From: Candidatus Azotimanducaceae bacterium
Lineage (GTDB): Bacteria > Pseudomonadota > Gammaproteobacteria > Pseudomonadales > Azotimanducaceae
Assembly: GCA_965243175.1 (NCBI GenBank)
Contig: OZ251532.1
Span: forward strand, 2,041,464-2,105,463
DNA: 64,000 bases
Direction: 5' to 3'
The notes beneath the pieces are model-generated. The model had not been told where the DNA came from. It did no database searches and saw only the letters and a list, made by a program, of their open reading frames with translations. Below, in pieces: positions 844-14,979 of the stretch. The stretch's first letter is position 1, and every line of letters starts with the position of its first letter. The position numbers and the translations under genes were made by a program.

Positions 844-1250
844 TGCGCGAGCCGGTCGGCGAGGCTGCCGTAGGGGAGAAAGCGGTTCTTGCTCACGGAC
901 TTGATCCACGGCGTCAGGTCCTCGGGATACGCGCCGCGTTCGCGCAGCAGGCGGGCGATCTGGATCACCGGCGACTTTGCGCCGGCATCGCAGCCGGCGA
1001 TGGCCTCTTCGGCGAGCGTCAGCACGCGCAGCCAGCGGACGAGGCGCGGCGAATCGATGGGTTGCAGCCAGTGCTGGCGAGCCGATGGTTCCGCTTGCAC
1101 GACGTCGCGCAGGTGGTTGGCGCGCTCGTCGCCGAGTTCGCGAAGGGCGGCGCTGGCGTCATCGAGCGCAAGCGCCGCGTCGTCCAAGGCGCTCGCGTGA
1201 ACCGGTCCGAGAGTAGCGGACGGGTTCCACGCGCCGACGGTCGCGCTCAT
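840..1250 (-). CDS. Hypothetical protein, translationally coupled to hisB (ATGA overlap)
   Basis: ORF 840-1364 with likely start MSATVGAW at 1250. The stop overlaps the hisB ATG. No family recognised. Confidence 0.45.
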
Positions 1251-1260
1251 ACTTGCCCCC

Positions 1261-2382
1261 GTGTCCATGCGCGACAAGTCTAACGCAGCGGCGGAGCGAA
1301 GCGGTCTCGCGCCGCCGTGCTTCGCGGAACGGCTGCTCGCTTGGTGGGACGTGCATGGGCGCAAGAATCTGCCTTGGCAGAAGCAGCGCTCGCCGTATCG
1401 GGCGTGGGTTGCGGAAGTGATGCTGCAACAGACCCAGGTGAGCGTGGTGATCCCCTACTTCGAGCGGTTCGTGGCGCGGTTCCCGACTGTCGGCGCGTTG
1501 GCGGATGCCGAACTCGACGACGTGCTGCATCTGTGGAGCGGCCTCGGCTACTACGCCCGTGCTCGCAATCTGCATCGTGCAGCGGGAGTCGTCGTTCGGG
1601 AACATGGCGGGGCGTTGCCGAGGTCGGCAGAGGGCATCGCGGCGTTGCCCGGAGTCGGTCGTTCCACCGCTGCGGCCATTGCCGCCCAAGCCTACGGCGA
1701 ACGCGCCGCCATTCTGGACGGCAACGCGAAGCGCGTCCTCGCTCGGTGTTGGCGGGTGGCCGGCGCAGCGTCTTCGGCGGCGACCAACAAGGCGCTGTGG
1801 GAACTCGCGGAAGCCTGCACGCCAGCGGACCGCGTGGCCGACTACACGCAGGCCATCATGGACTTGGGCGCGACGGTGTGCGCGCGACGCAATCCGCGTT
1901 GCGGCGAATGCCCCATGGAGGACGCCTGCGCCGGGCGGGCCGAGGGCGATGCCGAGCGGTTTCCGATGCCCGCGGTGCGCCGCTCGAGGCGTTTGGAGCG
2001 GCGGCGCTTTTTCGTCTTGATCGACGCCCGGGGCGACTGCTTTCTGGAACGTCGTCCGCCGCATGGGATCTGGGGCGGGCTGTGGTCGCCGCCGGAGCGT
2101 TCCGCGTCCACATCGGCGGTGGAGTTTCTAACGGGCCTTGGCGGCGATGAGCGACTGGTGCGCCGAACGCGGGTGGCACCGTCCTTCAAGCATGGCTTCA
2201 CCCACTACGACTTGGACGTGCGGCCGGTTTATGTGTGGCTGAAAGCGCGGCCGGGGCTTGTGGGCGATCGCGAGGGAGCGTGGATCGATCCCGCCGATCA
2301 TCGACTTGGCCTTTCCGCTGTTGCGGCTAGACTCTTGGCCGCGGCCGCCACCTTCCGACTGGAGCCGAACGATGGAACGTAG
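1261..2382 (+). CDS. mutY: A/G-specific adenine DNA glycosylase
   Basis: LLAWWDVHGRKNLPWQ, PYRAWVAEVMLQQTQV, GLGYYARARNLH, PGVGRSTAAAI, and an Fe-S cluster loop CxxRNPRCGECP. Confidence 0.93.
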   Translation: MSMRDKSNAAAERSGLAPPCFAERLLAWWDVHGRKNLPWQKQRSPYRAWVAEVMLQQTQVSVVIPYFERFVARFPTVGALADAELDDVLHLWSGLGYYARARNLHRAAGVVVREHGGALPRSAEGIAALPGVGRSTAAAIAAQAYGERAAILDGNAKRVLARCWRVAGAASSAATNKALWELAEACTPADRVADYTQAIMDLGATVCARRNPRCGECPMEDACAGRAEGDAERFPMPAVRRSRRLERRRFFVLIDARGDCFLERRPPHGIWGGLWSPPERSASTSAVEFLTGLGGDERLVRRTRVAPSFKHGFTHYDLDVRPVYVWLKARPGLVGDREGAWIDPADHRLGLSAVAARLLAAAATFRLEPNDGT

Positions 2383-2644
2383 CGTCTTCTGCAGAAAGTA
2401 CCAGCGGCAACTGCCCGGCCTCGACGCGCCGCCGCTGCCGGGTGCTGCTGGCCAGGACCTCTTCGAGAACGTCTCCGCCAAGGCATGGCGGGAGTGGCGG
2501 CACTTGCAGACCATGCTCATCAACGAACACCACCTCTCGATGGCCGACCGCAGCGCACGCGAATACTTGAGCGAGCAGATGCGGCTCTTTCTCGCCAACG
2601 AGGAGTACGAGAAGCCGGCCGGCTACGTGCCGGAGGGCGAATAG
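2372..2644 (+). CDS. yggX: Fe(2+)-trafficking protein YggX
   Basis: MERSVFCRKYQRQLPGLDAPPLPG...WREWRHLQTMLINEHHL. It sits in the classical position downstream of mutY, with an 11-nt overlap. Confidence 0.9.
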   Translation: MERSVFCRKYQRQLPGLDAPPLPGAAGQDLFENVSAKAWREWRHLQTMLINEHHLSMADRSAREYLSEQMRLFLANEEYEKPAGYVPEGE

Positions 2645-2780
2645 GGGTCTTCTCCTACATGCGAAAGCAGGGATTTCCTACATCCGGCCGGGCCAATCTC
2701 TCTAGAATCGGCGTTTCCGGCTGGCCAAGCTATGTGCCTCGCTACACTTCGCGGCTTGGCGGTCATGGTACGGTTGAAGC

Positions 2781-3617
2781 ATGAAAACGCAGCGCCAGTA
2801 CGAGATCAACGGCACCCGCGTTCGTCGTCCGGTTCGGCCCAGCGCCAAGGCCGACGACGGTCTGTATCGCTACGTGCCAGTGCCGCCCGTGGGCTACGAC
2901 GAAGACGGATACCCCGTTGAGGACGGCATGTCGCAGAACCGAGACCATCAGCGGCAGACCTCGCACTGGTGCAGCGCGCTCACGCTGCGCTACCCGAACG
3001 CGACGGTGTGTTCGGACCTGATCATGCCCTACGAACGCGGCGACAAGGAGAAGGTGGCGGTGCCGGACCTGTTGGTGGCGCTGAATGCGCCGCTGGATGT
3101 CCATCGGCGCTCCTACAAGCTCTGGGAGAACCCGACGCCGGACCTGGTGATGGAGATGATCTCGCCGGACAGCACTTGGAAGGACGATGTCGGATCGAAG
3201 TACCGCACCTACCAGATGCTCGGCATTCGCGAGTACTGGCTGTTCGATGCGACCGGCAAACGCCTAACCGCGCCGGTGGTCGGCTACCGGCTGTGCGGCA
3301 AGGTCTATCAGGAGATCTCGGAGACCGAAGGGCGGCTGGAGAGCGAAGTTCTGGGTCTCGACCTGTATGTGCGCAACGGCGAACTGCGATTCCACGACCC
3401 AGAGACGGGGAAGGATCTGACGACCCACGCAGAGTCCGAGGCCCAACGAGATACCGCTGAGCAACAAGCCCAAGACGCCAAACGAGAAGCCCAGAACGCC
3501 AGGCGAGAAGCCCAAGACGCCAGACGAGATGCCCAGTCCGCCGAACAACGAGCCCAGACCGCCGAAGACGAGGTGGAACGCCTGCGGGTGCTGCTCGAAC
3601 AGAAGGAATCCAAGTAG
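2781..3617 (+). CDS. Uma2-family (DUF820) PD-(D/E)XK endonuclease with a C-terminal coiled-coil tail
   Basis: PDLLVAL...PDLVMEMISP...K..Y...GIREYWLFD core, followed by LRFHDPETG and a heptad-repeat tail (AQDAKREAQNARREAQDARRDAQ). Confidence 0.8.
   Translation: MKTQRQYEINGTRVRRPVRPSAKADDGLYRYVPVPPVGYDEDGYPVEDGMSQNRDHQRQTSHWCSALTLRYPNATVCSDLIMPYERGDKEKVAVPDLLVALNAPLDVHRRSYKLWENPTPDLVMEMISPDSTWKDDVGSKYRTYQMLGIREYWLFDATGKRLTAPVVGYRLCGKVYQEISETEGRLESEVLGLDLYVRNGELRFHDPETGKDLTTHAESEAQRDTAEQQAQDAKREAQNARREAQDARRDAQSAEQRAQTAEDEVERLRVLLEQKESK
3466..3570 (+). repeat. About five imperfect 21-nt tandem repeats (unit like gaagcccaagacgccagacga) encoding the heptad tail of the Uma2 protein
   Basis: Direct reading of 3466-3570. 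Confidence 0.6.
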
Positions 3618-3705
3618 CGGCCCTGCGCTCTCGGTGCCGCTTCCACGCTGCGGCTGGCTTCCCACATGTCGCCAACCCCTCGGCAGCTGGGCCGGCGCAC
3701 TGCCC

Positions 3706-6069
3706 TCACCTTCCGACGACGCCGCTGCCCACGAGTTGCTCCACCTCGCCAGCCGGCAACTTCAGCAGGTCGTGAAGCACACCCTCGGTGTGTTCGCCCA
3801 GCAATGGCGAGCGGCGAACCGCCGGGCGTTCGCCTTCCACCAGCACCGGCAAGCCGGTGTAGCGCCGGGTGCCGGAGGTCGGATGCGCGAGCGCTGGGAA
3901 GAACGACGTCTCGCTCGTCGCCATGTCGTCGCCGGTCACCACGCGGGAGGCGTGTACGCCAGCAGCGCGCAGGGCGGCTTCGGCATCTTCGACGGCCAGT
4001 TGCCGCGCCCACTCGCCGAGGGCCTGATCAATCGCAGCCGCGTTCGCGATGCGTCCGGCCAAAGAGCGGAACGACGCGCCAGCCAAGCGCTCGTCGGCAA
4101 CCACTTCGGCAACCTCTTGCCACTGCGCGTCGTCCTCCACCGCCAAGGCGAGCCAGCGTTCGCGCCCTTCGCCATCGTCGGCGCAGCGATAGCAGCCGTG
4201 CGGCGCCATGTCGTGGCTGCCGTTGCCTAGCGGCACGACATCCTCCGCGGCGTAGAACTGCTGCACGTAGCGGTCGCCGATGAGAAACGCCGCGGCTTCC
4301 ACTTGCGTGGCGTCGATGAAGCAGCCTTGGCCGGTTCGATCACGACGCATCAATGCCGCCAGCAACGGCACCAGCGCCTGCTTGCCGGCGATGTGGTCCG
4401 GGTGGTTCAGCGTGGTGCCCACTGGGAAGGGATCGTCGGGGTGCGACCACTGGTGGGTCACGCCGGAGAAGGTTTGCAGGTTCGGGCCGTAGGTTTGGAA
4501 GCCGTCGTAGGGGCCGCTCCCCAGCCCTTGGCTGCCCAGGTAGACGACGTCCGGGCGGATCGCCTTGGCACCGCCGTAGTCCAACCCCCAGCGCGCGACC
4601 ACCGAGCCGCGCATGTTCTCCATCACGATGTCGCATTCGGCGGCGAGTCGCTGCACCACCGCCACGCCTGCCGGCTTCGACATGTCCACCGCCAGGCTGT
4701 GGACGCCGAGGTTGAGCTGGTTGAAGGTGGGGCTGTTGTTGACGTCCATCGCGCCGGCCATGCCGTTGCGCCGCAGGAAGTCCACGTGGACCAACGATTC
4801 CACCTTGACGACTTCGGCGCCGAACAGCGCCAGCAGCGAGGCCGCTTCCGGCACCACCGCGCCGACGCCGAGTTCCAACACGCGCACACCAGCCAGCGGC
4901 GCCTCGCTGACGGCGGGTGCGTCGCTCGATGGCGTTGGGCGGCTGGCGGCTTGGGCTCGCGCCGCTTCGGTGTCGGCGCCGAGCGCGGGCGCGGGAGCGG
5001 GTTCGGCTTCGAGTTCCTGCGGCAACAAGCGCAGCGGCGTGCGCACCCGTTCCATCGCGCCGAACTCCGGGTCGTCCACTTCGCGGATGATCTGCCGAGC
5101 GCGAACGTGCGGGTCCTTGCGAAACGCGCTCAACGTGTTCACCGGCGAAATGGTCAGGCCCAGCCGCTGCCCTTCCATGAACAGGTCTTCGGTGGAACGC
5201 TCGCGGATCAGCTCGGCGCACAGGAGCTTCAGCGCGTCGGCGTTCTCGACCCGGAACTGCGGATCGCTGAACGGGCCGTCGACGATTGCCTCCGGTTCGC
5301 CGAGCAGCTTCACGAAGGCGGCCCACTGCTTCGGAGTGCCGGCCAGAATGCGCGCGTAGCCGTTCTGGGTTTCGTAGATGGGGAAGCCGTTGGGACCCAG
5401 TCGAGCGGTCAGCGTACCCTGGCCAGCGGCCTGCATTTCGTAGGCATGCAAACAGCGCGTCCACGGCGTGATGGCCGACACGGCGGCCTCGTGGTACGGA
5501 ATCTCGAACCGCGCGGTGCGTCGCCTCTCGCCCGCCCGCTGCGCTGCGAAGAGGCCCATCGCCGCCATCACCGCGGCGTAGACGCCAGCCCCGTCGAGCG
5601 CCAACCACGACGGCGCGTTGCACGGCGGCTGCTCCGGCCAGCCGCTGGACGCCATGCCGCCACTCGCCGCGAAGCCGACGATGGACGAGACGCCAAGCCC
5701 CAGTTCATCGGTCACCGTCGCCGCCACCTTCGGCTGCGCGCTCGCAACGCAATCGTGAAACGGCGAACGTTCCGCATCGAAGACGACATCCGCCTGCGCG
5801 CAGAGACCAAGCAGCAGGCGCTGGTCGTCGCCGCTCGCAGGGTCCAGCACGACGCTCTTCTTGCCCGCGTTGCGGGCGAGGAAGGCGATGCTGCCGCGAG
5901 TGGATTCGCCAGCGTTCGGAACACGCGGCAAGCGCCTGCGTGTCGCTCCGCCGCCCGGCGGCTCGACCAGCCAGACATCGGCACCCAAGCCAGCGAAAAT
6001 CAAGCCAGCGTATTCAGTGTGCGGGTGCGCGATCTCAACGACCTGCACGCCATCAAGCAAACCAGCCAT
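3706..6069 (-). CDS. Family III CoA-transferase (CaiB/BaiF type), two tandem transferase modules in one 787-aa protein
   Basis: N-terminal LDGVQVVEIAHPHTEYAGLIFAGLGADVWLVEPPGG and an internal LAGVRVLELGVGAVVPEAASLLALFGAEVVKVES both match the CaiB N-terminal signature. Confidence 0.85.
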   Translation of the reverse strand: MAGLLDGVQVVEIAHPHTEYAGLIFAGLGADVWLVEPPGGGATRRRLPRVPNAGESTRGSIAFLARNAGKKSVVLDPASGDDQRLLLGLCAQADVVFDAERSPFHDCVASAQPKVAATVTDELGLGVSSIVGFAASGGMASSGWPEQPPCNAPSWLALDGAGVYAAVMAAMGLFAAQRAGERRRTARFEIPYHEAAVSAITPWTRCLHAYEMQAAGQGTLTARLGPNGFPIYETQNGYARILAGTPKQWAAFVKLLGEPEAIVDGPFSDPQFRVENADALKLLCAELIRERSTEDLFMEGQRLGLTISPVNTLSAFRKDPHVRARQIIREVDDPEFGAMERVRTPLRLLPQELEAEPAPAPALGADTEAARAQAASRPTPSSDAPAVSEAPLAGVRVLELGVGAVVPEAASLLALFGAEVVKVESLVHVDFLRRNGMAGAMDVNNSPTFNQLNLGVHSLAVDMSKPAGVAVVQRLAAECDIVMENMRGSVVARWGLDYGGAKAIRPDVVYLGSQGLGSGPYDGFQTYGPNLQTFSGVTHQWSHPDDPFPVGTTLNHPDHIAGKQALVPLLAALMRRDRTGQGCFIDATQVEAAAFLIGDRYVQQFYAAEDVVPLGNGSHDMAPHGCYRCADDGEGRERWLALAVEDDAQWQEVAEVVADERLAGASFRSLAGRIANAAAIDQALGEWARQLAVEDAEAALRAAGVHASRVVTGDDMATSETSFFPALAHPTSGTRRYTGLPVLVEGERPAVRRSPLLGEHTEGVLHDLLKLPAGEVEQLVGSGVVGR

Positions 6070-6163
6070 GCACCCTCCTTGAAGCCCGAGCCCATCCTAC
6101 ACCCGAAGCGATGCGCCCACGTGGCAGTTACTGTCAATCGACTACTAATCACTGTCAAATTCA

Positions 6164-6996
6164 CTAGGGCGTGTTGACACTACTGCAGGGCATCGACGAT
6201 GAGCGCCAGATAGACGAACGAAGCGAAGACGACGTCCAGCTTGTCGTAGCGCGTGAATATCCGCCGGAACCTCTTCAGTCTCCCGAAGAGGCGCTCCACT
6301 TCGTTGCGGCGCCTGTAGATCCCCTTGTCGTAGTCCCACGGCTTCTTGCGGTTCTCCTTCGGCGGAACCACCGGCATCGCGCCCATCTCCTCCACCAGCG
6401 CCCGCGTCTCGTCGCCCTCGTACGCCTTGTCCATCGCCACGTTCTCCGCGGTCAGCGGAGTCGCCGCCAGCAGCTTCCTGCCCTCCGGCCTGTCTCCCGC
6501 CTGCCCGCCCGACAGCGAGAAGTTCACCGCCGTGCAGGCGTCCGCCGCGATCGCGTGGATCTTCGTCGTCCATCCCCCGCGCGACTTGCCGATGCTTTGC
6601 GCACCGTTTTTTTTAACGCCCCGGTCCCATCCGGATGCACCTTCACCAGCGTGCTGTCCAGCGACACCGTGTCCCCTTGGCCGCCGACCACCCCGAGCTC
6701 GCGCAACTCCTTGAAAATCGCTGCCATGACGCCCTTCTTCGACCACCGCTCCCAACGCCGGTACACCGTGTTCCACGGCCCGTAGCGCTCCGGCAGCGCG
6801 CGCCACTTGCACCCGTTCTCCAGCACGTAGAGCATCCCGTTGAGCTGCGTCAGCGGGTCGTGCTTCACGTTCCCCCGCGGCCGCGGCAGCACATGCTTGA
6901 TCTTCTCGAACTGCGACTCCGTGATCTCCATGACGACCTCCTTGTCGTCTCAAATCTCCACGCCAATGTACCACGCGTTATGTCAACACGCCCTAG
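6164..6996 (-). mobile_element. IS5-family insertion sequence (IS427/IS1031-like), about 0.83 kb
   Basis: Perfect 16-bp terminal inverted repeat: ctagggcgtgttgaca (6164-6179) and tgtcaacacgccctag (6981-6996). The outer CTAG could instead be a 4-bp target duplication. It encloses a two-frame transposase. Confidence 0.85.
6180..6931 (-). CDS. IS5-family transposase OrfAB, needs a -1 frameshift on an A8 run
   Basis: OrfA (6524-6931) reads MEITESQFEKIKHVL...GCKWRALPERYGPWNTVYRRWERW. OrfB frame (to 6180) reads ...GGWTTKIHAIAD...MDKAYEGDETR...RNEVERLFGRLKRFRRI. The frames join at the T8/A8 run 6607-6614 (GALKK|NGAQS). Confidence 0.85.
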
Positions 6997-7082
6997 CAAC
7001 TGCCTTGCACGCTATCGCGATCCAAAGCCGACGGGGCCGTCCGCCTGCGGAACGCAAACCCCGTTGACGCGCCCGGCGCCGA

Positions 7083-7288
7083 AGGAAACCTGGGCGCTGA
7101 CGATGCGCTGGCACGATCCGGCGACGGCCACGGACATCCCGGACTACGACCAGTCGCGGGCCGAAGCGCAGGCGGAGCGCACCCGGGCGGACGCGGTGGA
7201 GCACGAAGCGCGAGCCCGCACGGGAGCGGACCAGCGCAGGATCGCCGAACTGGAAGGACAGCTTCGGCGGCTGCGCGAGGGGCGTTGA
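7083..7288 (+). pseudogene. C-terminal fragment of a second Uma2-family gene (N-terminal part missing)
   Basis: TWALTMRWHDPATATDIP...AEAQAERTRADAVEHEARAR...IAELEGQLRRL parallels the LRFHDPETG plus coiled-coil tail of 2781-3617. The PD-(D/E)XK core is absent and the IS lies immediately upstream. Confidence 0.5.
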
Positions 7289-7322
7289 GTCCTCTGCGTG
7301 GCCGTTCAGCACGGCTGGCTCT

Positions 7323-7366
7323 TGCGCTTGACAAGCGCGTTGGGAGAGAGCACTCTTTGCGCCGTT
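7323..7366 (+). promoter_or_regulatory. Conserved about 44-nt box (copy 1) with TTGACA at 7328-7333, upstream of precursor A1
   Basis: tgcgcttgacaagcgcgttgggagagagcactctttgcgccgtt aligns with 10667-10710. The flanks are not conserved. Confidence 0.4.
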
Positions 7367-7481
7367 CAACTCGGCGAGCCGAGTGGCGAGTGCGCCGTGA
7401 GGGATGCGGCGCGGTGGCTGTTTTGGCAGCTAGGCCAGCAGCTGGGAGCAGCTTTCCTTAAATCAACGCGAGGAGTACGCT

Positions 7482-7684
7482 ATGAATTCCCCCCCCCCCC
7501 CCCCCCTCAGAAAGCCGAGGACGACAGCGGCGACGTAGCGCCGCACGAAGCCGCTGCGGCAGAAACCAAGAAGAAGCCGTGGTCGAGGCCGACCTTCCGC
7601 GCCATCGACGAAGTGACGATGTCGGCGAGTGCGCCGGCTCCCGACCTCGCTGAGAACACCGCTTACTATCCACTGTCGAACTGA
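7482..7684 (+). CDS. Putative RiPP (lasso-like) precursor peptide A1; the ATG frame and the conserved peptide frame differ by -1 inside a C18 tract
   Basis: SD GAGGAG 6 nt before ATG 7482, then the C18 tract. The conserved frame reads ...PPPPPPQKAEDDSGDVAPHEAAAAETKKKPWSRPTFRAIDEVTMSASAPAPDLAENTAYYPLSN* and is paralogous to 10810-11027. Confidence 0.6.
7489..7506 (+). repeat. Homopolymeric C18 tract
   Basis: Counted directly. Confidence 1.
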
Positions 7685-7750
7685 GTGGTGCGGCTAGCGG
7701 CTTCGGCAGCGGCTGGACTCCAGCAGCAACGCGGCCAGAGGCGGTCTGAG

Positions 7751-8782
7751 ATGCCGGCTTTCTATCGCGCCTATGGGTTGCGCGTGCGCTCCGAGGTGCC
7801 GCTGCCGTTCGATTCATTGCCGGCGCCTGTCCAAGATGCGGACGTCACGGTGCGCCTTGGCGACATTCCCGCCGAGCTTCCCGGCAGCGACGTCGTCCGC
7901 AAGGTGCGGTGGCAGGCCCGGCCTGGCGTCTTCCTCATCAAAGTCGAGGGCGTCGCTCGCTACTTGGTGGAGGGCGGTCGGGACATTACCGTGGCACCGC
8001 TTGGCGGCGACGATGCCGACATCGCCGCCTTCTTCGCCAACGCGCCCTTCGCAGTCCTCCTTCAACAGCGCGGCGTGCTCACGCTGCACTCCAGCAGCGT
8101 GGCGACCGGGGCTGGCGCGGCGTTGCTGCTCGGCGAGAGCGGAGTCGGCAAGTCCTCGCTGGCAGCGGCGCTCGTCGAGCGCGGCTTTCCGCTGATCGCG
8201 GACGACGTGACCGGGCTGGTCGCGGACGCAGACGGTCGCGTGACGGCGCTGCCCGGGTTCGCGAGCCTGCGGCTGTGGGCGGATACCTTGGACGAGATGC
8301 GCTGGCGAGGTCGCGGCGAGTCGAAGATGCGGCAGAGCATGGACAAGTACTGGATGCCCGTCGAACGCGCCCGCGCCACGCCGCTGCCGGTGCATGCCGC
8401 CTTCGTGCTGAAGGCCAACGGATCGAACGTCGACATCGATCCGATGCCGGAGCGGGACGCTTTCTCGCTGCTGTGGAGAAACACCCATCGGGCGCGGGCG
8501 ATGGGCGCGATCGGCAAGACGCAAACACGGTTCCGCACGGTCGCCGCGATGGCGCAGCGCGTCCCGGTAGCGGTAGCGACGCGGCCACGCCATCCGTTTC
8601 TGCTCGATGCGCTGGCGGACCGGGTTGCGGCGCTGCTTCCCGCGGCTTCGTTCTCCCGGGCCAGCGTGGCGGGACCGTGGCGCGACGTCCTGACGAAAGC
8701 CCAGGAGCGAGCGTTGACCAGCGCTCACGGCGAGGTGATGGCGCGGTTCGGCTATCTGCCGGACGCCGAATCGCCGGCGTAG
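7751..8782 (+). CDS. HPr-kinase-like P-loop kinase (HprK C-terminal-domain family)
   Basis: LTLHSSSVATGAGAALLLGESGVGKSSLAAALVERGFPLIADD is the HprK-type Walker A region. ORF 7685-8782 with ATG at 7751 preferred. Confidence 0.8.
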   Translation: MPAFYRAYGLRVRSEVPLPFDSLPAPVQDADVTVRLGDIPAELPGSDVVRKVRWQARPGVFLIKVEGVARYLVEGGRDITVAPLGGDDADIAAFFANAPFAVLLQQRGVLTLHSSSVATGAGAALLLGESGVGKSSLAAALVERGFPLIADDVTGLVADADGRVTALPGFASLRLWADTLDEMRWRGRGESKMRQSMDKYWMPVERARATPLPVHAAFVLKANGSNVDIDPMPERDAFSLLWRNTHRARAMGAIGKTQTRFRTVAAMAQRVPVAVATRPRHPFLLDALADRVAALLPAASFSRASVAGPWRDVLTKAQERALTSAHGEVMARFGYLPDAESPA

Positions 8783-8816
8783 GCATTTTCGACGCTTCGT
8801 GTACGCCGCAGCGTCG

Positions 8817-10661
8817 ATGGCCGCGATCTGTGGAATCCGCACTGCGGGCCGGGGCGGCAAGGCGGCGCTCGAGGCCATGCTGGGAACGCTTGCGGGAGCT
8901 GGCCCCGCGCACTCGGCTTGGCCGCAAGCGGCCATCGGCCTTGGCTGCCGCGAGACGGCGCTAGGCGAACCCGCGCTGGTCGCGGACGATGCCGCCGGCT
9001 TGACGCTGGTGGCCGACGCCCGCCTCGACGACCGCGATGGCCTTTGCGACGCGCTGGGCGTTCCAGTTGCCGAGCGCCGAGGCGTTGCCGATGCGCAACT
9101 GATTCTCCGCGCCTGGTCGCGCTGGGGCCGGGAGTGCCCGAACCACCTGCTCGGCGACTACGCCTTCGCGCTGTGGGACGCGCGGCGCCATTTCATGTTC
9201 TGCGCTCGGGACCACGCCGGCGCCCGGCCTTTCTACTACGCCCTGCCCAAGGACGGCATCGTCTTCGCGAGCGCCGTCGAACCGGTCCTCCGTGCGCCGG
9301 ACGTCGGGGACGCCTTGGACGAAGCCGTGGTGGCGACGCATCTTGCCAGCCGGCATTGCAGCGACACGCGCACGTTCTTCGCTGCAGTGCGCAAGCTGCC
9401 GCCGGGCCATGCGCTCTGCGTCGAATGGGCGCCGTCCGCGAACGGCACCGTGCAGCGAAAAAAGAGCCTCGCGCGTTACTGGCGGCCCGAACTGGCACCC
9501 GTGGCGAGACCAGCCGCCGACGACGAGTACGCCGAGCAGTTCCGCCACCTGCTCGCCCAAGCGGTGCGCGACCGGCTGCGCGGGTGCGATCCCGGCGCCA
9601 TCGGAACCCATCTGAGCGGCGGCCTGGATTCCTCCAGCATCGCGGTCGTCGCGGCCCGCGAGTTGCGCAGCCAAGGCCGTTCGCCGCCGCTCGCCTTCAG
9701 TTGGCTGCCGCAGCTGGGGGATGCGCCGCCCAAGGCCGAGTACGAGCGGGAGTACGCGCTGGTCGACGCGGTGTGCGCCCAGGAAGGCATCGAGGTCGTC
9801 CACGGCACGCCTTCGGCTGCGGACACCCTCGGCGTACTCGGCACCGACGGGGCGCTGCCCGGCATCCACCTTCACATCAACGAGGAGATCGCGCAACGCC
9901 ATGCCGCGGCCAGAGGCGTGCGTGTGCTGCTCTCCGGCTGGGGCGGCGACGAGTGCGTCTCGTTCAATGGCCGCGGGCATTGGCAGGAACTGCTCTTGCG
10001 TGGCCGCTGGCGGAAGCTCGCCGCCGAGTGTCGGGCGCAGGACGCCACGGCGCTGCGTTTCCTGGCGCACGTCGTGCTGCCGCTCCTGCATCCCGCGCTC
10101 GTGCCAGCGCTCGCCGGAAGCCGTAGCTGGCCGACCGCGAAGCGCTGGCTTATCGACCCCGCGTTCTCTCGCCGCGTGAAGCCGTTGGCTGCACCGGGAT
10201 GGCGAGAGATCGGAGTGCGCAGCACGCAGCTTCGGCTGCTGCAGGCCGGGCATCTGGTCGACCGCATCGAAGGCTGGGCGGCCAGCGGCGCCCGTCGAGG
10301 TATCGAATACCGCTATCCGCTGCTGGATCGCCGACTGCTGGAGTTCGCCCTGGGGCTGCCGCCCGAACAGTTCCGGCGCGGGCGCTGGAGCCGCTGGCTG
10401 TTCCGCCACGGCTGCCGCACGCTGCTGCCGCCGGAGGTCCGCTGGAATCGGCTGAAGGCCGACCCGGCGCGCAGCGAGACCACGCAGGACGCCTTCGTCG
10501 AGGCGTTCCCCGCGATCCGGCAGCGCCTCGCCGCCCGCACTCCGTCCCGCGCCCGCTACGTGGACGTGCAGCGCCTGCTCGAACGCCTGGACGCGGCGCG
10601 GTTCCACACCAAGCCGCAACCGGGGCCGATGATCAGGGCGCTGCAACTCCTCGATTTCTGA
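8817..10661 (+). CDS. Asparagine-synthetase-like protein (lasso-cyclase-like; Cys not at position 2)
   Basis: MAAICGI, LLGDYAFALWD, RDHAGARPFYY, PP-loop THLSGGLDSSSIA, LLSGWGGDE. An alternative GTG start is at 8799. Confidence 0.85.
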   Translation: MAAICGIRTAGRGGKAALEAMLGTLAGAGPAHSAWPQAAIGLGCRETALGEPALVADDAAGLTLVADARLDDRDGLCDALGVPVAERRGVADAQLILRAWSRWGRECPNHLLGDYAFALWDARRHFMFCARDHAGARPFYYALPKDGIVFASAVEPVLRAPDVGDALDEAVVATHLASRHCSDTRTFFAAVRKLPPGHALCVEWAPSANGTVQRKKSLARYWRPELAPVARPAADDEYAEQFRHLLAQAVRDRLRGCDPGAIGTHLSGGLDSSSIAVVAARELRSQGRSPPLAFSWLPQLGDAPPKAEYEREYALVDAVCAQEGIEVVHGTPSAADTLGVLGTDGALPGIHLHINEEIAQRHAAARGVRVLLSGWGGDECVSFNGRGHWQELLLRGRWRKLAAECRAQDATALRFLAHVVLPLLHPALVPALAGSRSWPTAKRWLIDPAFSRRVKPLAAPGWREIGVRSTQLRLLQAGHLVDRIEGWAASGARRGIEYRYPLLDRRLLEFALGLPPEQFRRGRWSRWLFRHGCRTLLPPEVRWNRLKADPARSETTQDAFVEAFPAIRQRLAARTPSRARYVDVQRLLERLDAARFHTKPQPGPMIRALQLLDF

Positions 10662-10666
10662 CGCAC

Positions 10667-10710
10667 TGCGCTTGACAAGCCGCACTGGGAAAGAGCACTC
10701 TCGCGCCGTT
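10667..10710 (+). promoter_or_regulatory. Conserved box (copy 2) with TTGACA at 10672-10677, starting 6 nt after the cyclase stop
   Basis: tgcgcttgacaagccgcactgggaaagagcactctcgcgccgtt aligns with 7323-7366. Confidence 0.4.
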
Positions 10711-10809
10711 GGACGCAACTTGAACGGGACCGTCGGGTAGCCGCAAGGCCCCGAGAGCAAGATCGGTCGAGAGGCCGATCTGCACACCCAAGCCAGCAGA
10801 GGCCACTCT

Positions 10810-11027
10810 ATGAATTTCCCCAATTTCCCCCCCTCCCCCCCCCCCCCCCCCCCCCCCCTGAGGACGACAACGACGGCGTAGCGCCGCGCGAGCCGTTAGC
10901 GGCAGAAACGAAGAAGCCGTGGTCGAAACCCACCTTCCGCCGTCTCGACGATAGGACCATGTCGCGAGTCGCAAGCGGGCCGCAACCGGAAACGAACGAG
11001 ATCGGCGTTTACAACCCAAACTCGTAA
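10810..11027 (+). CDS. Putative RiPP precursor peptide A2; again -1 out of frame across a C24 tract
   Basis: SD AGAGG 7 nt before ATG 10810, then C4, C7 and C24 runs. The conserved frame reads ...EDDNDGVAPREPLAAETKKPWSKPTFRRLDDRTMSRVASGPQPETNEIGVYNPNS*. That frame has no ATG, GTG or TTG between 10662 and 10958. Confidence 0.55.
10835..10858 (+). repeat. Homopolymeric C24 tract, preceded by C7 at 10827-10833
   Basis: Counted directly. Confidence 1.
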
Positions 11028-11069
11028 GTCGCGAAGCATTCATTGACGGACACAGCTCGAAGCGTCCCC

Positions 11070-11135
11070 ATGCAGGCTGCCTACTGCGCCTGCGGGTTGC
11101 GGGTGCGCTCCGACGTGCTGCTGAACTGGCCGTAA
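11070..11135 (+). pseudogene. 21-codon relic of a second HprK-like kinase gene
   Basis: MQAAYCACGLRVRSDVLLNWP* compared with the kinase N-terminus MPAFYRAYGLRVRSEVPLPFD (12 of 21 identical). It holds the same position relative to A2 as the intact kinase does to A1. Confidence 0.6.
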
Positions 11136-11147
11136 GGCGGGCGTCGG

Positions 11148-13043
11148 TTAGGACTTGCGGGCAAACCGGAGCGCGCGCACCGCCAGCGCGAGGAGGGCCA
11201 GCGCAATTGCGTACCACATCAGGAAGCCCAGGGAGAGGGTGAGGGCGGATTCCATCTCCAAGGCCAGTACCGCGAGCATGTGCGTGCCAGCCGCCAACGT
11301 CGCAGGGCAGGCGTCTGGATGGTGCAGGAGTTCGTGCAGGGCGCGATAGAGCAGGCCGAGCGCGACCATGCCGAGGAGCACGCCGGCGAGGCCGAAGTTG
11401 ACGTAGAACTCGCCGAGCTGATGCACCTTGAAGGCGCGCATCGTGTCCGGCGCCGTGAAGCCGTACCGAATCCCCAAGTCGCGCACGTCGCCCGGTTTCT
11501 CGGCGAAGACGGCGCGGGGGACGAGCTTGTAGAGGATCGGCAGATAGGTCTCGCCGTGCAGGAAGGGCAGCGGGTCGGGGGAGCGCACGGTGAGCCAGGC
11601 GAGGGGCAGCAGGTAGTCGAGGCGCTTGGCGGTCAAGTCCTCGGTGCGCATCGCGCCGCCTTCGCCGTCGAACGCCGCCGCCATCGTCTTCGCGTACAGT
11701 CCCGCCTTCTCCGCTAGGGAATCGTGCGCCTGCGGCGCTCCCGGGTTGCTGGGAATAGCGGCACGGAAGGGCGCGTCCGCGTGTTCGGCTGCGGCGACTT
11801 CGTGCGGGACGACTTGCTTCAGCCGCGACAACTCGATGCGAACGGCCACTATCGGATAGTCCGGCAGACGGAGGCTGGCGACGCAGCGGCCGTCTTCGAC
11901 GAGGCCGTCGCCGAAGGAGGTTCCCAAGGACTGGAAACTGCGGCGCCATCTGAGTTCGGGCAGGTCGCGTACGTCCACCGGATCGACGAACGCGCCGATT
12001 CGGAACGCCGGTTGGGCGCAGACTTCCGGGTCGTTGTGGGCGACGGTGAGGGTTCGGCCGCGAAGCGTTGCTTCGTAGGCAGGCGTGGTCAACGTCTGTT
12101 TCTCGCCGTCCGCCAGCACGAACTGGTGGGCGGCGACCGGCGAGGTCGCGTTCGGGCCCACGCCATGCGTCCAGATCAGCTGCCGGTACTCCAAGCGCGT
12201 GGGAATCAGCACGAAGAGGAGCGCCGCGGCGGTCACTGCGCCGAAGGCGATGCCGCGCCAAGTCGGCCTCGGTGCGACCACCGCGTAGGCCACGAACAGA
12301 GCGAACACCGCCTTCGCGCCGTGGTTCACCATCCCGGTGCTGAACCCCAGAACCGTGTAGTACGCGACCAACGCCGCCAGATAGAGCCGCCCGGCAACGC
12401 CAAGCTGGCCGCGCAAGTGCAGGTGGAAGCACACCAGCGCCGCGAACAGCACGAACTGCCCGGCGAGCGTCACCGGGAACGCGACCGCATCGGGCAGCAG
12501 CGTCTCCCCGGCGTACCGGGCGGCAACCGCCGCCTTGTCCAGATAGAAGAACGGCGCTGCGGCGAGGCCCACCACCACCGCGACCGCCTTGGCGAGCTGC
12601 GGATCGTCGCTCGGCAATATGCGGACGGTCGGCAGCGCGGCCCACGGTTTCCCGCCGGCGAACGCGAAGTAGCCCGCCATCAGGGCGGCCCATCCGCCGA
12701 GAGCCAGCATGAGCGCGTAGTCGATGGCGTCCGCTTCGAGCAGCGGCCGCGGCAGCCAAGCGCCGAAGAAGTCGACGCGCACGAAGACCGGCGCCGCGAA
12801 GCAGGCGGCGTAGAGGACGCCGACGTAGGGCATCGCCGAGTGTCGCCAACGCCGCCGTGCAGCCCACATGAGCGAAGGCGCCGCGCACAGGGCGATGAGC
12901 AAGCTCGCGAGCAGGCGCTGCAAGCCGGTCGGCTCGGCTGGCGCGTGGAGATTGAGGGCGACGATGGCCAACGCCACCAGAACCGCGACCGCCGCGAACA
13001 TCCGCCGCCCGTCGTCGAGTGCGCTTGCTGGTTTCTCTTCCAT
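11148..13043 (-). CDS. Polytopic membrane protein of unknown function (Wzy/O-antigen-ligase-like topology with a large soluble insert)
   Basis: 631-aa ORF with many hydrophobic helices at both ends and an insert of about 200 aa. The family assignment is a guess. Confidence 0.65.
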   Translation of the reverse strand: MEEKPASALDDGRRMFAAVAVLVALAIVALNLHAPAEPTGLQRLLASLLIALCAAPSLMWAARRRWRHSAMPYVGVLYAACFAAPVFVRVDFFGAWLPRPLLEADAIDYALMLALGGWAALMAGYFAFAGGKPWAALPTVRILPSDDPQLAKAVAVVVGLAAAPFFYLDKAAVAARYAGETLLPDAVAFPVTLAGQFVLFAALVCFHLHLRGQLGVAGRLYLAALVAYYTVLGFSTGMVNHGAKAVFALFVAYAVVAPRPTWRGIAFGAVTAAALLFVLIPTRLEYRQLIWTHGVGPNATSPVAAHQFVLADGEKQTLTTPAYEATLRGRTLTVAHNDPEVCAQPAFRIGAFVDPVDVRDLPELRWRRSFQSLGTSFGDGLVEDGRCVASLRLPDYPIVAVRIELSRLKQVVPHEVAAAEHADAPFRAAIPSNPGAPQAHDSLAEKAGLYAKTMAAAFDGEGGAMRTEDLTAKRLDYLLPLAWLTVRSPDPLPFLHGETYLPILYKLVPRAVFAEKPGDVRDLGIRYGFTAPDTMRAFKVHQLGEFYVNFGLAGVLLGMVALGLLYRALHELLHHPDACPATLAAGTHMLAVLALEMESALTLSLGFLMWYAIALALLALAVRALRFARKS

Positions 13044-13138
13044 GCCGTGTACCGGTGCGCGACGAAGGACTGTAGCGGTACCGCGTTTCGTGGCCCATGA
13101 TAGTCCGCCGAAGGTCTCTCGCCCGCGAAGCGCCTCCC

Positions 13139-13612
13139 ATGCCCGATTCCGGCAAACGCCTGCTCGTCGTCTACCACACGCAGACCGGACGCACCCGCGC
13201 CTTGGCCGAGGCGGTGCGCGAAGGCGCGGCCGACCCGGCCATCGAAGGCGTGGAACTGCGCGTGGTCACGGCGCGGGAAGCCGATGCGGAGAGCCTGCTC
13301 TGGGCGCAGGGGTTGCTGCTCGGCACGCCGGAGAACTTCGGCTACATGTCCGGCGGCATGAAGGACTTTCTCGACCGTACCTTCTACGCCGTGGAAGGCA
13401 AGCTCCAGCCGCTGCCCTACGCCATCTTCATCAGCGCCGGCAACGACGGGCGCGGCGCACTGCGAGCGATTCGGCGCATCGCTGGCGGCTACCCCTTCGT
13501 GGAAGTGCAGGAGCCGGTCATCGCCCGCGGCGAAGTGCGGGACTGCCATCTGCAAGCCTGCCGCGAGCTCGGGATGGCGCTTGCGGCGGGGCTGGAAGCT
13601 GGCATCTACTGA
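13139..13612 (+). CDS. Flavodoxin-like fold protein
   Basis: KRLLVVYHTQTGRTRALAEAV...LLLGTPENFGYMSGGMKDFLDR. Confidence 0.7.
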   Translation: MPDSGKRLLVVYHTQTGRTRALAEAVREGAADPAIEGVELRVVTAREADAESLLWAQGLLLGTPENFGYMSGGMKDFLDRTFYAVEGKLQPLPYAIFISAGNDGRGALRAIRRIAGGYPFVEVQEPVIARGEVRDCHLQACRELGMALAAGLEAGIY

Positions 13613-13746
13613 CGCGCCCGGAGTCGCGGTGTCCGCAAGTCTTGGGTGACGGAGGCTGGGAAAGCGGGCGTCCCGCCGCCGGCAGACGAGACGCCTGCGC
13701 TCCCAGGTTCGCCCCACGGCGCGGCTGAGCGCGTAAACTGGCGTCC

Positions 13747-14979
13747 ATGCCCGGCTTCACCACGTCCATCGTCCACTCGGATCGGCTCGATCCCATCGAG
13801 CACGGCTCGCTGCACAAGCCCGTTCACGCCACCGTCGCCTACGGCTACGAGGACGTGCAGGGCCTTGCCGACGTGTTCCAAGGCAAGAGTTCGGGCTACT
13901 CCTACGGGCGGCAGGTCAATCCCACCGTCTCCGCGCTCGAAGCGAAGATCAGCCGCATGGAGCGCGGCATCGCCACGGTGTGCTTCGGCACCGGCATGGC
14001 GGCCATCGGCACGACGCTGTTCGCGCTGCTGCGCAGGGGCGATCACTTCGTTTCCAGTTCGTTTCTGTTCGGCAACACCAACAGCCTGTTCCAGAGCTTC
14101 GCCGCGCATGGGGTGGAGGTGACGTTCGTGGATGCCACGCGCACGGACGCCGTGGCCGATGCGCTGCAACCGAACACCAGGCTGGTGTTCGTGGAGACCA
14201 TCGCCAATCCGCGAACCCAGGTGAGCGACCTGGCCGGCATCGGCGCGCTGTGCAAGGAACGCGGGGTCGTCTATGTGGTGGACAACACCATGACCTCGCC
14301 GTATCTGTTCCAGCCCGTGGCGGTGGATGCATCGCTGATCGTCAACAGCCTCACCAAGTACATCGGCGGCCACGGCAACGCCTTGGGCGGCGCGGTGACG
14401 GAAACCGGGCTGTTCGACTGGCGCGCCTTCGACAACATCTACGACACCTACAAGAAGGGCGACGCGAAGCGCTGGGCGATCACGCAGATCCGCAAGAAGG
14501 GCCTGCGCGATTTCGGCGCCGCGCTTGGGGCGGAGGCGGCGCACCACCTGGGGATAGGCGCCGAGACCCTCGCCTTGCGGCAGGAAAGGCAGTGCGACAA
14601 CGCGCAGGCGTTGGCGGATTTCCTGGCGGCGCACCGCAACGTTCGGCGCGCCTACTATCCTGGGTTGGCCGAGCACCCGGAGTGCGAAAGGGCGAAGGCG
14701 CTGTTCCGGCGCCCGGGCGGGCTGTTCAGCTTCGAGCTGGTCGACGGCATGGATGCGTTCGCGTTTCTCAATCGGCTCAGGGTGGTCGTCAAGTCCAGCA
14801 ATCTCGGCGACAACCGTACGCTGGCCATTCCCGTGGCGGAGACCATCTACTACGAGATGGGGCCGGAACGCCGCGCCAGCATGGGCATCGCGGATTCGCT
14901 GGTGCGCATCTCCACCGGCATCGAGGAAACCGACGACCTGCTCGAGGACTTCGCGCAGGCACTGGCGTCTGCGAAGTAG
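13747..14979 (+). CDS. Cys/Met-metabolism PLP enzyme (O-succinyl/acetyl-homoserine sulfhydrylase or cystathionine gamma-synthase family)
   Basis: GYSYGRQVNPTV, VCFGTGMAAI, VVDNTMTSPYLF, NSLTKYIGGHGNALGG (PLP lysine), SLVRISTGIEE. Confidence 0.9.
   Translation: MPGFTTSIVHSDRLDPIEHGSLHKPVHATVAYGYEDVQGLADVFQGKSSGYSYGRQVNPTVSALEAKISRMERGIATVCFGTGMAAIGTTLFALLRRGDHFVSSSFLFGNTNSLFQSFAAHGVEVTFVDATRTDAVADALQPNTRLVFVETIANPRTQVSDLAGIGALCKERGVVYVVDNTMTSPYLFQPVAVDASLIVNSLTKYIGGHGNALGGAVTETGLFDWRAFDNIYDTYKKGDAKRWAITQIRKKGLRDFGAALGAEAAHHLGIGAETLALRQERQCDNAQALADFLAAHRNVRRAYYPGLAEHPECERAKALFRRPGGLFSFELVDGMDAFAFLNRLRVVVKSSNLGDNRTLAIPVAETIYYEMGPERRASMGIADSLVRISTGIEETDDLLEDFAQALASAK

Follow-up and report, generated by a model that had tools for sequence, protein, structure and literature searches.

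Long poly-C tracts as candidate contingency switches in lasso-like RiPP precursor genes of uncultured Pseudomonadales and Alphaproteobacteria

Introduction

Homopolymer phase variation is textbook knowledge for the surface structures of pathogens, and the homopolymer tracts of contingency loci are typically 7-13 nt long. The opa genes of Neisseria form a multigene family with CTCTT repeats in the region encoding the signal peptide, and cells express random subsets of this family. Poly-G/C tracts in 5' coding regions are a classical phase-variation device (PMC5084427, PMC8355987, PMC10330708). In the contingency loci of Neisseria, Haemophilus, Campylobacter, GAS (mga), and M. tuberculosis, the C/G run is located just inside the open reading frame (ORF), its length varies among close strains, and the frame defines the ON and OFF states (PMC5084427, PMC8355987, PMC10330708, PMC10334774). 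In Neisseria gonorrhoeae, the bacteriocin-like peptide genes napR and napC carry poly-G (6-12) or poly-T in their 5' part, and the authors inferred phase variation from the allele lengths (PMC11798529).

In lasso peptide clusters, HPr-kinase homologues modify the linear precursor by phosphorylating its C-terminal Ser (PMC8498205). The kinase-lasso clusters of paeninodin and Sphingobium yanoikuyae combine such a homologue with an Asn-synthase-like cyclase, and their precursors end in Ser and possess a leader Thr, a Ser/Gly at position 1, and a Glu at ring position 8-9 (PMC8498205). We found no paper reporting a poly-C tract in the known kinase-lasso clusters. Prolyl-tRNA slippage has been described on CCC-C, where tRNAPro, given a run of C, can shift its pairing to the +1 or +2 frame, above all when the ribosome stalls; these events are errors held low by m1G37 and EF-P (PMC4519876, PMC7577736).

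This study analyzed the precursor locus A2 in a 64,000-nt stretch of DNA from a Candidatus Azotimanducaceae bacterium (hereafter the window). The A2 tract shares with the contingency loci its place just within the ORF, its variable length among close strains, and a frame that would define ON and OFF. However, the tracts described here are 14-24 nt long and occur in uncultured Pseudomonadales and Alphaproteobacteria of environmental or symbiotic origin, not in pathogens; their target is a RiPP precursor and neither a surface structure nor a restriction-modification gene. The locus resembles napR and napC in being a small secreted-peptide gene in which a 5' homopolymer alters the leader or peptide; in contrast to the unmodified nap peptides with their double-glycine leader, the products are predicted to be cyclase/kinase-modified (lasso-like) RiPP precursors. 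A cluster often has several of these genes, and each carries a separate and much longer tract. As in opa, every paralogue has a repeat in a protein part that is removed and that would affect expression only, with mononucleotide runs in RiPP leaders in place of pentamer repeats in outer-membrane adhesins. The cluster shares the cyclase, the HPr-kinase homologue, and the precursor features of the kinase-lasso clusters but lacks an adjoining PqqD-like RRE, transglutaminase-like peptidase, or ABC exporter. The C run would also allow the re-pairing described for tRNAPro.

Results

Cluster organization and precursor family

The gene order in the window is precursor A1, an HPr-kinase-like gene, an asparagine-synthase-like gene, precursor A2, and a remnant, 21 codons long, of the 5' end of the kinase gene (Table 1). 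The presence of the kinase remnant after A2 therefore indicates that A2 arose as a duplicate of the A1-kinase unit. The best NCBIfam match of the predicted cyclase was NF033535 (lasso peptide isopeptide bond-forming cyclase; E = 7e-102), with 342 bits against a curated cut-off of 525, and its Pfam domains were Asn_synthase and GATase. Because HPr-kinase homologues have this role in paeninodin-type clusters (PMC8498205), the HPr-kinase-like protein is presumably the kinase that acts on the C-terminal Ser of the precursors.

Table 1. Features of the A1/A2 cluster (window positions).
Feature	Position	Strand	Details
Promoter-like box, A1	7328-7356	+	TTGACA-N17/18-CACTCT; aligns with the A2 box and that of relative L137 (7613-7641)
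Precursor A1	7482-7684	+	ATG 7482; C18 7489-7506; conserved frame 7508-7684; TGA 7684
HPr-kinase-like protein	7751-8782	+	Pfam PF07475 and NCBIfam HprK-related matches
Asparagine-synthase-like macrolactam (lasso) cyclase, predicted	8817-10661	+	NCBIfam and Pfam
Promoter-like box, A2	10672-10701	+	TTGACA-N18-CACTCT
Shine-Dalgarno (SD) sequence and start of A2	10798-10812	+	AGAGG 10798-10802; 7-nt spacer; ATG 10810-10812
A2 stub, ATG to main tract	10813-10834	+	AATTTCCCC AATTTCCCCCCC T; C4 10819-10822; C7 10827-10833; T 10834
C24 homopolymer, proposed slippage-prone switch	10835-10858	+	Poly-Pro whatever the frame; followed by T 10859
23-codon ATG-frame ORF of A2 as assembled (putative OFF-phase product)	10810-10881	+	MNFPNFPPSPPPPPPPLRTTTTA, then stop (TAG 10879-10881)
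A2 conserved leader and core frame	10860-11027	+	EDDNDGVAPREPLAAETKKPWSKPTFRRLDDRTMSRVASGPQPETNEIGVYNPNS, then stop (TAA)
A2 leader motif	10911-10946	+	KKPWSKPTFRRL
A2 predicted core		+	Start S/G 10974-10979; invariant Glu 10998-11000; C-terminal Ser before TAA
Kinase 5' end remnant, 21 codons	11071-11136	+	MQAAYCACGLRVRSDVLLNWP, then stop; homologous to the first kinase codons (A1/A2 locus alignment)

An alignment of 26 precursors displayed the pattern K-K/R-P-W-x-x-P-T/S-I/V-R ... T-x-S-G ... E ... Y-x-P-x-S followed by the stop codon, in which W, P, and E were invariant and the Glu lay 8-9 residues beyond the Ser/Gly of T-x-S-G. As judged from this alignment, the layout is that of a lasso precursor, with a leader Thr near the cleavage site, S/G at position 1, and Glu at 8-9. 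The C-terminal Ser was present in A2 and most relatives. Searches of Pfam and NCBIfam, including the curated precursor models, yielded no model matching the precursors.

Gene calling and Pfam searches detected no PqqD-like RRE or transglutaminase-like leader peptidase among the genes approximately 6 kb on either side, and the related clusters L009, L010, L139, L140, and L141 were likewise without a PqqD-like or transglutaminase-like gene; no neighboring exporter was identified at the window cluster or at these five relatives. An uncatalogued precursor family and a type of lasso-cyclase cluster without a neighboring leader peptidase are now defined. The clusters of relatives additionally contain genes for a sulfotransferase (sometimes fused to the kinase), a GT8 glycosyltransferase, and an Asp/Asn beta-hydroxylase. 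These gene contents hint at C-terminally phosphorylated, sulfated, or glycosylated peptides. In OZ244921.1 (loci L009 and L038, approximately 556-582 kb), a span of about 26 kb contains seven tract-bearing precursors, two kinase genes, two sulfotransferase genes, a cyclase, and a GT8.

A TTGACA-N17/18-CACTCT box is located 110-125 nt ahead of the precursor ATG in A1, A2, and L137 and probably serves as a promoter whose -10 element is atypical. Each OZ244921.1 precursor has its own TATGAT/TATCAT -10-like box. A scan with the sigma-70 consensus called no promoter, the conserved TTGACA box included, and a terminator scan returned three terminator-like matches, all within the cyclase gene and equal in number to the chance expectation.

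The A2 start, tract, and reading frames

The AGAGG-N7-ATG start of A2 and its C4, C7, and C24 runs, first described in a sequence-only reading of this DNA, proved exact in position when the sequence was re-read. The ATG is followed by AATTTCCCCAATTTCCCCCCCT and then by the unbroken C24, which begins 25 nt past the ATG, whereas the C18 of A1 begins 7 nt past its ATG. The longer A2 stub is an internal duplication of an AATT+Cn unit, comprising C4, C7, and one interrupting T; the near-identical strain L001 carries AATTTCCCCAATT+C16 in place of the window version. The ATGAATT stub of A2 is also found in A1 and in L001, L143, and L145. In the 64-kb window, the A1 and A2 tracts were the only C/G runs of at least 9, and runs of at least 12 C were expected zero times in 100 shuffles of the window.

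The conserved A2 frame runs without interruption from the cyclase stop (10659-10661) and contains no ATG, GTG, or TTG before ATG 10959; this absence and the termination of the ATG frame at the TAG had both been claimed before and were confirmed. The offset between the two frames (10860-10810 = 50) is such that adding one C or removing two would unite them, and A1 is out of phase by one base in the same manner. That reading had also drawn attention to the TAG as homologous in the two copies. The homology is real but trivial: in both copies, the conserved GGC GTA GCG CCG is read one base out of phase.

When the 5' UTR and tract were folded as RNA, the z scores were -0.66 and -0.45 for A1 and A2, not beyond those of shuffled sequences, and the tract was unpaired. 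A riboswitch, a frameshift stimulator, and SD sequestration were dropped as candidates on these folding results. An Rfam scan of positions 7000-11200 at E <= 1 found nothing.

Evidence that the post-tract frame is coding

In L001, the A2 gene contains C16 and forms an uninterrupted ORF of 66 codons, and the sequence downstream of the tract is identical to that of A2 in the window. Other in-frame alleles were also identified. L140 (C8) is in frame (MDNAPPDENSEE..., MDNAPPDEN), as is its orthologue L141 at C17 (M-T-P5-DENGEE...); gene calling returned in-frame ORFs in L137 (C20), L141 (C23), and L143 A1 (C15); and a profile search of the protein database retrieved about 30 in-frame precursors with 3-11 consecutive Pro residues after a short N-terminal stub. 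Relatives without a tract, such as L005/L006 (MINAPSSARSKANEAAAASAPKRPWTKPAIR) and L013 (MRCPPDQSETGAKRPWSRP), use an ordinary in-frame ATG approximately 20 codons ahead of the K-R-P-W motif and have no Pro run (MINAPSS...).

The frame from the tract to the core stop was open in 29 of 29 genes, and indels occurred in threes. A codon-position test on the leader before the W revealed only a weak third-position excess (130/182/200), so the coding status of the post-tract region is based on the open frame, the triplet indels, and the in-frame alleles. Because of these alleles, L001 A2 among them, and the tract-less relatives, the true gene is, on comparative grounds, ATG-stub-Pro(n)-leader-core, and the post-tract frame is coding. 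This comparative evidence agrees with the earlier proposal that the full leader can be reached only from the upstream ATG combined with a change in frame or tract length.

The Pro run is encoded by CCC alone, whereas Pro codons in the neighboring genes are 64% CCG and 23% CCC. This difference indicates that the run is maintained at the level of the nucleic acid and not of the protein; selection would therefore appear to favor the DNA run and not poly-Pro. The lack of a Pro run in tract-less relatives and the contrast between C8 in L140 and C17 in its orthologue L141 point the same way.

Distribution of the poly-C tract among relatives

Related loci were anchored on kinase homologues and collected from species-representative genomes, ENA metagenome assemblies, and JGI metagenomes. 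Tract runs of C8-C24 recurred on 15 contigs, on which 29 tract-bearing precursors were scored. These contigs comprised several of ENA sample ERZ26050812, contigs from two other metagenome assemblies, the Pseudomonadales MAGs OY282519, JAJEGU01, and JAJDYJ01, Ca. Azophilus OZ244921 (seven tracts), and the alphaproteobacterial MAG OZ241868, and they were derived from HiFi as well as short-read assemblies. The tract was C on the sense strand in every case and was situated between the SD sequence with its ATG stub (4-43 nt) and the conserved leader. In both the Pseudomonadales and the Alphaproteobacteria MAGs, the tract precursors adjoin HPr-kinase-like and lasso-cyclase-like genes.

The histogram of C/G run lengths over 1.2 Mb of related loci was bimodal, falling to near nothing by 10-12 and rising to a second mode at 14-24; the tract lengths themselves had their mode at 15-16. 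A precursor leader followed 29 of the approximately 31 runs of at least 12 in these loci. JGI loci with distant kinases (<=38% identity, 393 kb), which served as the negative control, contained no long C runs. As far as these comparisons reach, the poly-C tract is a conserved feature of one sub-clade of kinase-plus-cyclase clusters. Neither this sub-clade-wide distribution nor the strain-to-strain differences in tract length described below had been part of the sequence-only reading.

Several loci deviated from the common layout. In L002, ATA is present where all relatives show the ATG start, and a TAA occurs in the conserved frame just before the tract. A C15 run in L008 (5155-5169) is without a clean precursor and is followed by low-complexity sequence (GATGATGATGGATGG). 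In L012, a C12 run (5845-5856) precedes a precursor with an extra internal 1-nt frameshift relative to L010, and a C15 run at the locus end (12786-12800) is without a clean precursor.

Length variation and reading-frame phase

The segment 6000-12000 of the window and its counterpart in L001 (ENA ERZ26050812) differ by two SNPs and an IS insertion in the window. Within the same 6 kb, the tracts differ: A1 has C18 in the window and C15 in L001, and A2 has AATTT+C7+T+C24 in the window and AATT+C16 in L001, all these lengths being assembly-level counts in which long homopolymers are poorly called and any single one, C24 included, may be off by at least one. ON and OFF alleles of one precursor thus occur, A2 being OFF in the window and ON in L001. 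The A1 orthologues have C12 (L145), C14 (L144), C15 (L143, in frame), C15 (L001), C18 (window), and C20 (L137, in frame). Precursors that lie out of frame in L038, L009, and L010 exist as in-frame versions in P0143, P0130, and P0150.

Phase was scored relative to the start nearest the SD sequence or to the one that database proteins use. For L010 C15 and L012 C14, distal in-frame starts were accepted, as the database proteins P0147 and P0138 use them; the distal in-frame ATGs of two L009 paralogues were rejected as starts, as the ATG sits inside the TATGAT -10-like box. The results revealed that 10 of the 29 precursors were in frame, 11 needed one additional nucleotide, and 8 needed one fewer, a distribution indistinguishable from uniform. 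The offset shared by A1 and A2, to which the earlier reading had attached importance, is correct, but these mixed phases do not support a meaning for it. Out-of-frame alleles occurred also among short runs (C10-C14) and in short-read as in HiFi assemblies.

Some phases were shared. A1 alleles with identical flanks and C12, C15, or C18 have one common phase, two L009 paralogues are kept in the same phase by a compensating 1-nt indel, and all seven precursors of the Ca. Azophilus genome are out of frame. A free-running switch predicts the A1 sharing with P ~1/9 and that of the L009 pair with P ~1/3. These three cases may be due to chance (P ~0.1-0.3 each), or phase may matter somehow.

Discussion

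A contingency switch in the leader

The interpretation we lean towards, with some reserve, is that C24 is a hypermutable contingency tract in a dispensable N-terminal part of the leader and switches individual precursors on and off. The intended product would be M-x(1-13)-Pro(n)-leader-core. Slipped-strand mispairing in replication would alter the number of Cs and thereby decide whether the conserved leader and core are read in the frame set by the SD-ATG start. Each precursor gene would thus be toggled stochastically and heritably, with the mature peptide untouched; the tract would lie in a leader part that is discarded and unneeded for recognition. The window copies A1 (C18) and A2 (C7-T-C24) would both have been recorded one C short of ON. 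The locus displays the sequence hallmarks of SSR phase variation, namely a repeat in the 5' coding region, length polymorphism, and frame toggling. We further infer that switching is reversible in the population, that OFF alleles give little or no precursor, and that selection maintains the tracts. Runs of C15-C24 could, however, slip too often in replication, transcription, or decoding for discrete ON and OFF states.

More tentatively, and as a possibility that we would not yet favor, every precursor in the sub-clade may have its own poly-C tract, and cells may express random heritable subsets of peptides through the shared machinery. The sub-clade concerned encodes the kinase and cyclase with or without the sulfotransferase, GT8, and hydroxylase, has no co-located leader peptidase, and is found in uncultured Pseudomonadales and Alphaproteobacteria, with up to seven tract genes in one genome.

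Alternative explanations

The uniform phases, with intact downstream ORFs in all OFF alleles, would fit recoding equally well. RNA polymerase stutter, or a prolyl-tRNA slip at an EF-P-dependent poly-Pro stall, would enable every DNA length to yield some precursor; we regard this reading, under which the DNA phase would be irrelevant and the tract would serve as an expression damper or rheostat, as unlikely. All frames of the run read CCC, which makes tRNA re-pairing perfect, and the C24 run exceeds the homopolymer length of at least 9 that forms part of the definition of a programmed transcriptional slippage site. Slippage of RNA polymerase at high efficiency has been documented chiefly on A/T runs. 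In vitro, native tRNAPro(UGG) on CCC-C moves into both the +1 and the +2 frame (PMC4519876); the +2 shift is the change that A1 and A2 need, and the +1 shift would rescue the alleles that need one nucleotide fewer. Nevertheless, such shifts are normally suppressed by m1G37 and the ribosome (PMC4519876), and the loci display no downstream stimulatory structure and no conserved shift direction. Recoding is also compatible with DNA-level switching, which is physically expected for C15-C24.

A somewhat smaller chance is given to the explanation that the tracts were miscounted and have expanded neutrally, with the genes truly in frame (A2 = C25, A1 = C19) and the Pro run no more than a slippage-expanded stretch that an unimportant leader region tolerates. 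Consensus sequences from HiFi and nanopore reads are error-prone in homopolymers longer than 10; short-read contigs break at the tract, stopping inside or beside it in L002 (1-40) and L138 (1-17); five of seven tracts are in frame in the higher-coverage contigs of one sample; and in-frame alleles are numerous in the protein database. A miscount is plausible for any single locus, the C24 of the window included. Two-thirds of the genes being out of frame would, however, require near-random calls even at C10, C12, C13, and C14 and in MEGAHIT assemblies (L010, L012), and no consistent error direction is apparent (11 vs 8). A systematic HiFi undercount by one was rejected for the same reason, as the errors would need to occur in both directions. 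Tolerated expansion is in addition argued against by the CCC-only coding, the mode at 15-16, and the recurrence in about 30 genes.

It is very improbable that only the short ORF from ATG 10959 (MSRVASGPQPETNEIGVYNPNS) is translated, as a near-leaderless peptide cyclized like pseudomycoidin, with the tract in a 5' UTR or uORF. Pseudomycoidin is reported to be made without a leader and leader peptidase (Zyubko 2019, cited in PMC8498205); the surroundings of the cluster contain no B1/B2 genes, and an equivalent ATG is common to A1 and A2. Against this, the Met is not conserved (T-x-S-G, where x is F, R, E, G, A, or M), AGGA ends only 2 nt upstream, the upstream K-K/R-P-W-x-x-P-T/S-I/V-R segment (K-K/R-P-W-x-x-P-T-I/V-R in its narrower form) is conserved at the protein level with a frame open back to the tract, and the gene-called in-frame alleles contain this leader motif.

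Scarcely any credence is left for a dedicated, programmed -1 ribosomal frameshift site kept in both copies, the directed shift implied by the sequence-only reading: the equal offset of A1 and A2 and its retention at A1 C12, C15, and C18 would suit it, but relatives need +1, -1, or no nucleotide in near-equal numbers, which leaves no common direction of shift, the L001 version of this A2 gene is in frame, and folding found no RNA structure past the tract.

Implications of a switchable precursor

We found no report in the literature of homopolymer phase variation in RiPP or lasso precursors. The nearest precedent, which is partial, is the poly-G tract in the gonococcal bacteriocin-like napR (PMC11798529). 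As judged from these comparisons, the tracts are best classed as putative homopolymer contingency loci in lasso-like RiPP precursor genes. If the tracts switch as contingency loci, these bacteria would produce secondary metabolites stochastically, as a bet-hedged trait that is set for each peptide separately, and the leader would be a safe site for a mutational switch because it is discarded. If the reading of random subsets is true as well, the sub-clade would possess a phase-variable, combinatorial natural-product repertoire.

The tract also has practical consequences. Out-of-frame precursors are invisible to ORF-based genome mining, and gene callers and RiPP miners miss the precursor system because two-thirds of its genes look frameshifted. 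Assemblies break or miscount at the poly-C tract, and heterologous expression would need the tract to be fixed in frame.

Other differences between the window and L001

Over positions 900-14800, divergence between the window and L001 is patchy, with 88 SNPs in 12000-14000 and 32 in 1000-2000; this pattern suggests recombination between strains. The IS element that is absent in L001 is 825 bp long (6168-6992) and lies approximately 330 bp upstream of the A1 promoter-like box. Its ends are inverted (GGCGTGTTGACA/TGTCAACACGCC), and it is flanked by a target duplication of 4 bp, CTAG. The minus strand of the element encodes a DDE transposase (6180-6974), and within this ORF there is an A8 run, which reads as T8 on the plus strand (6607-6614).
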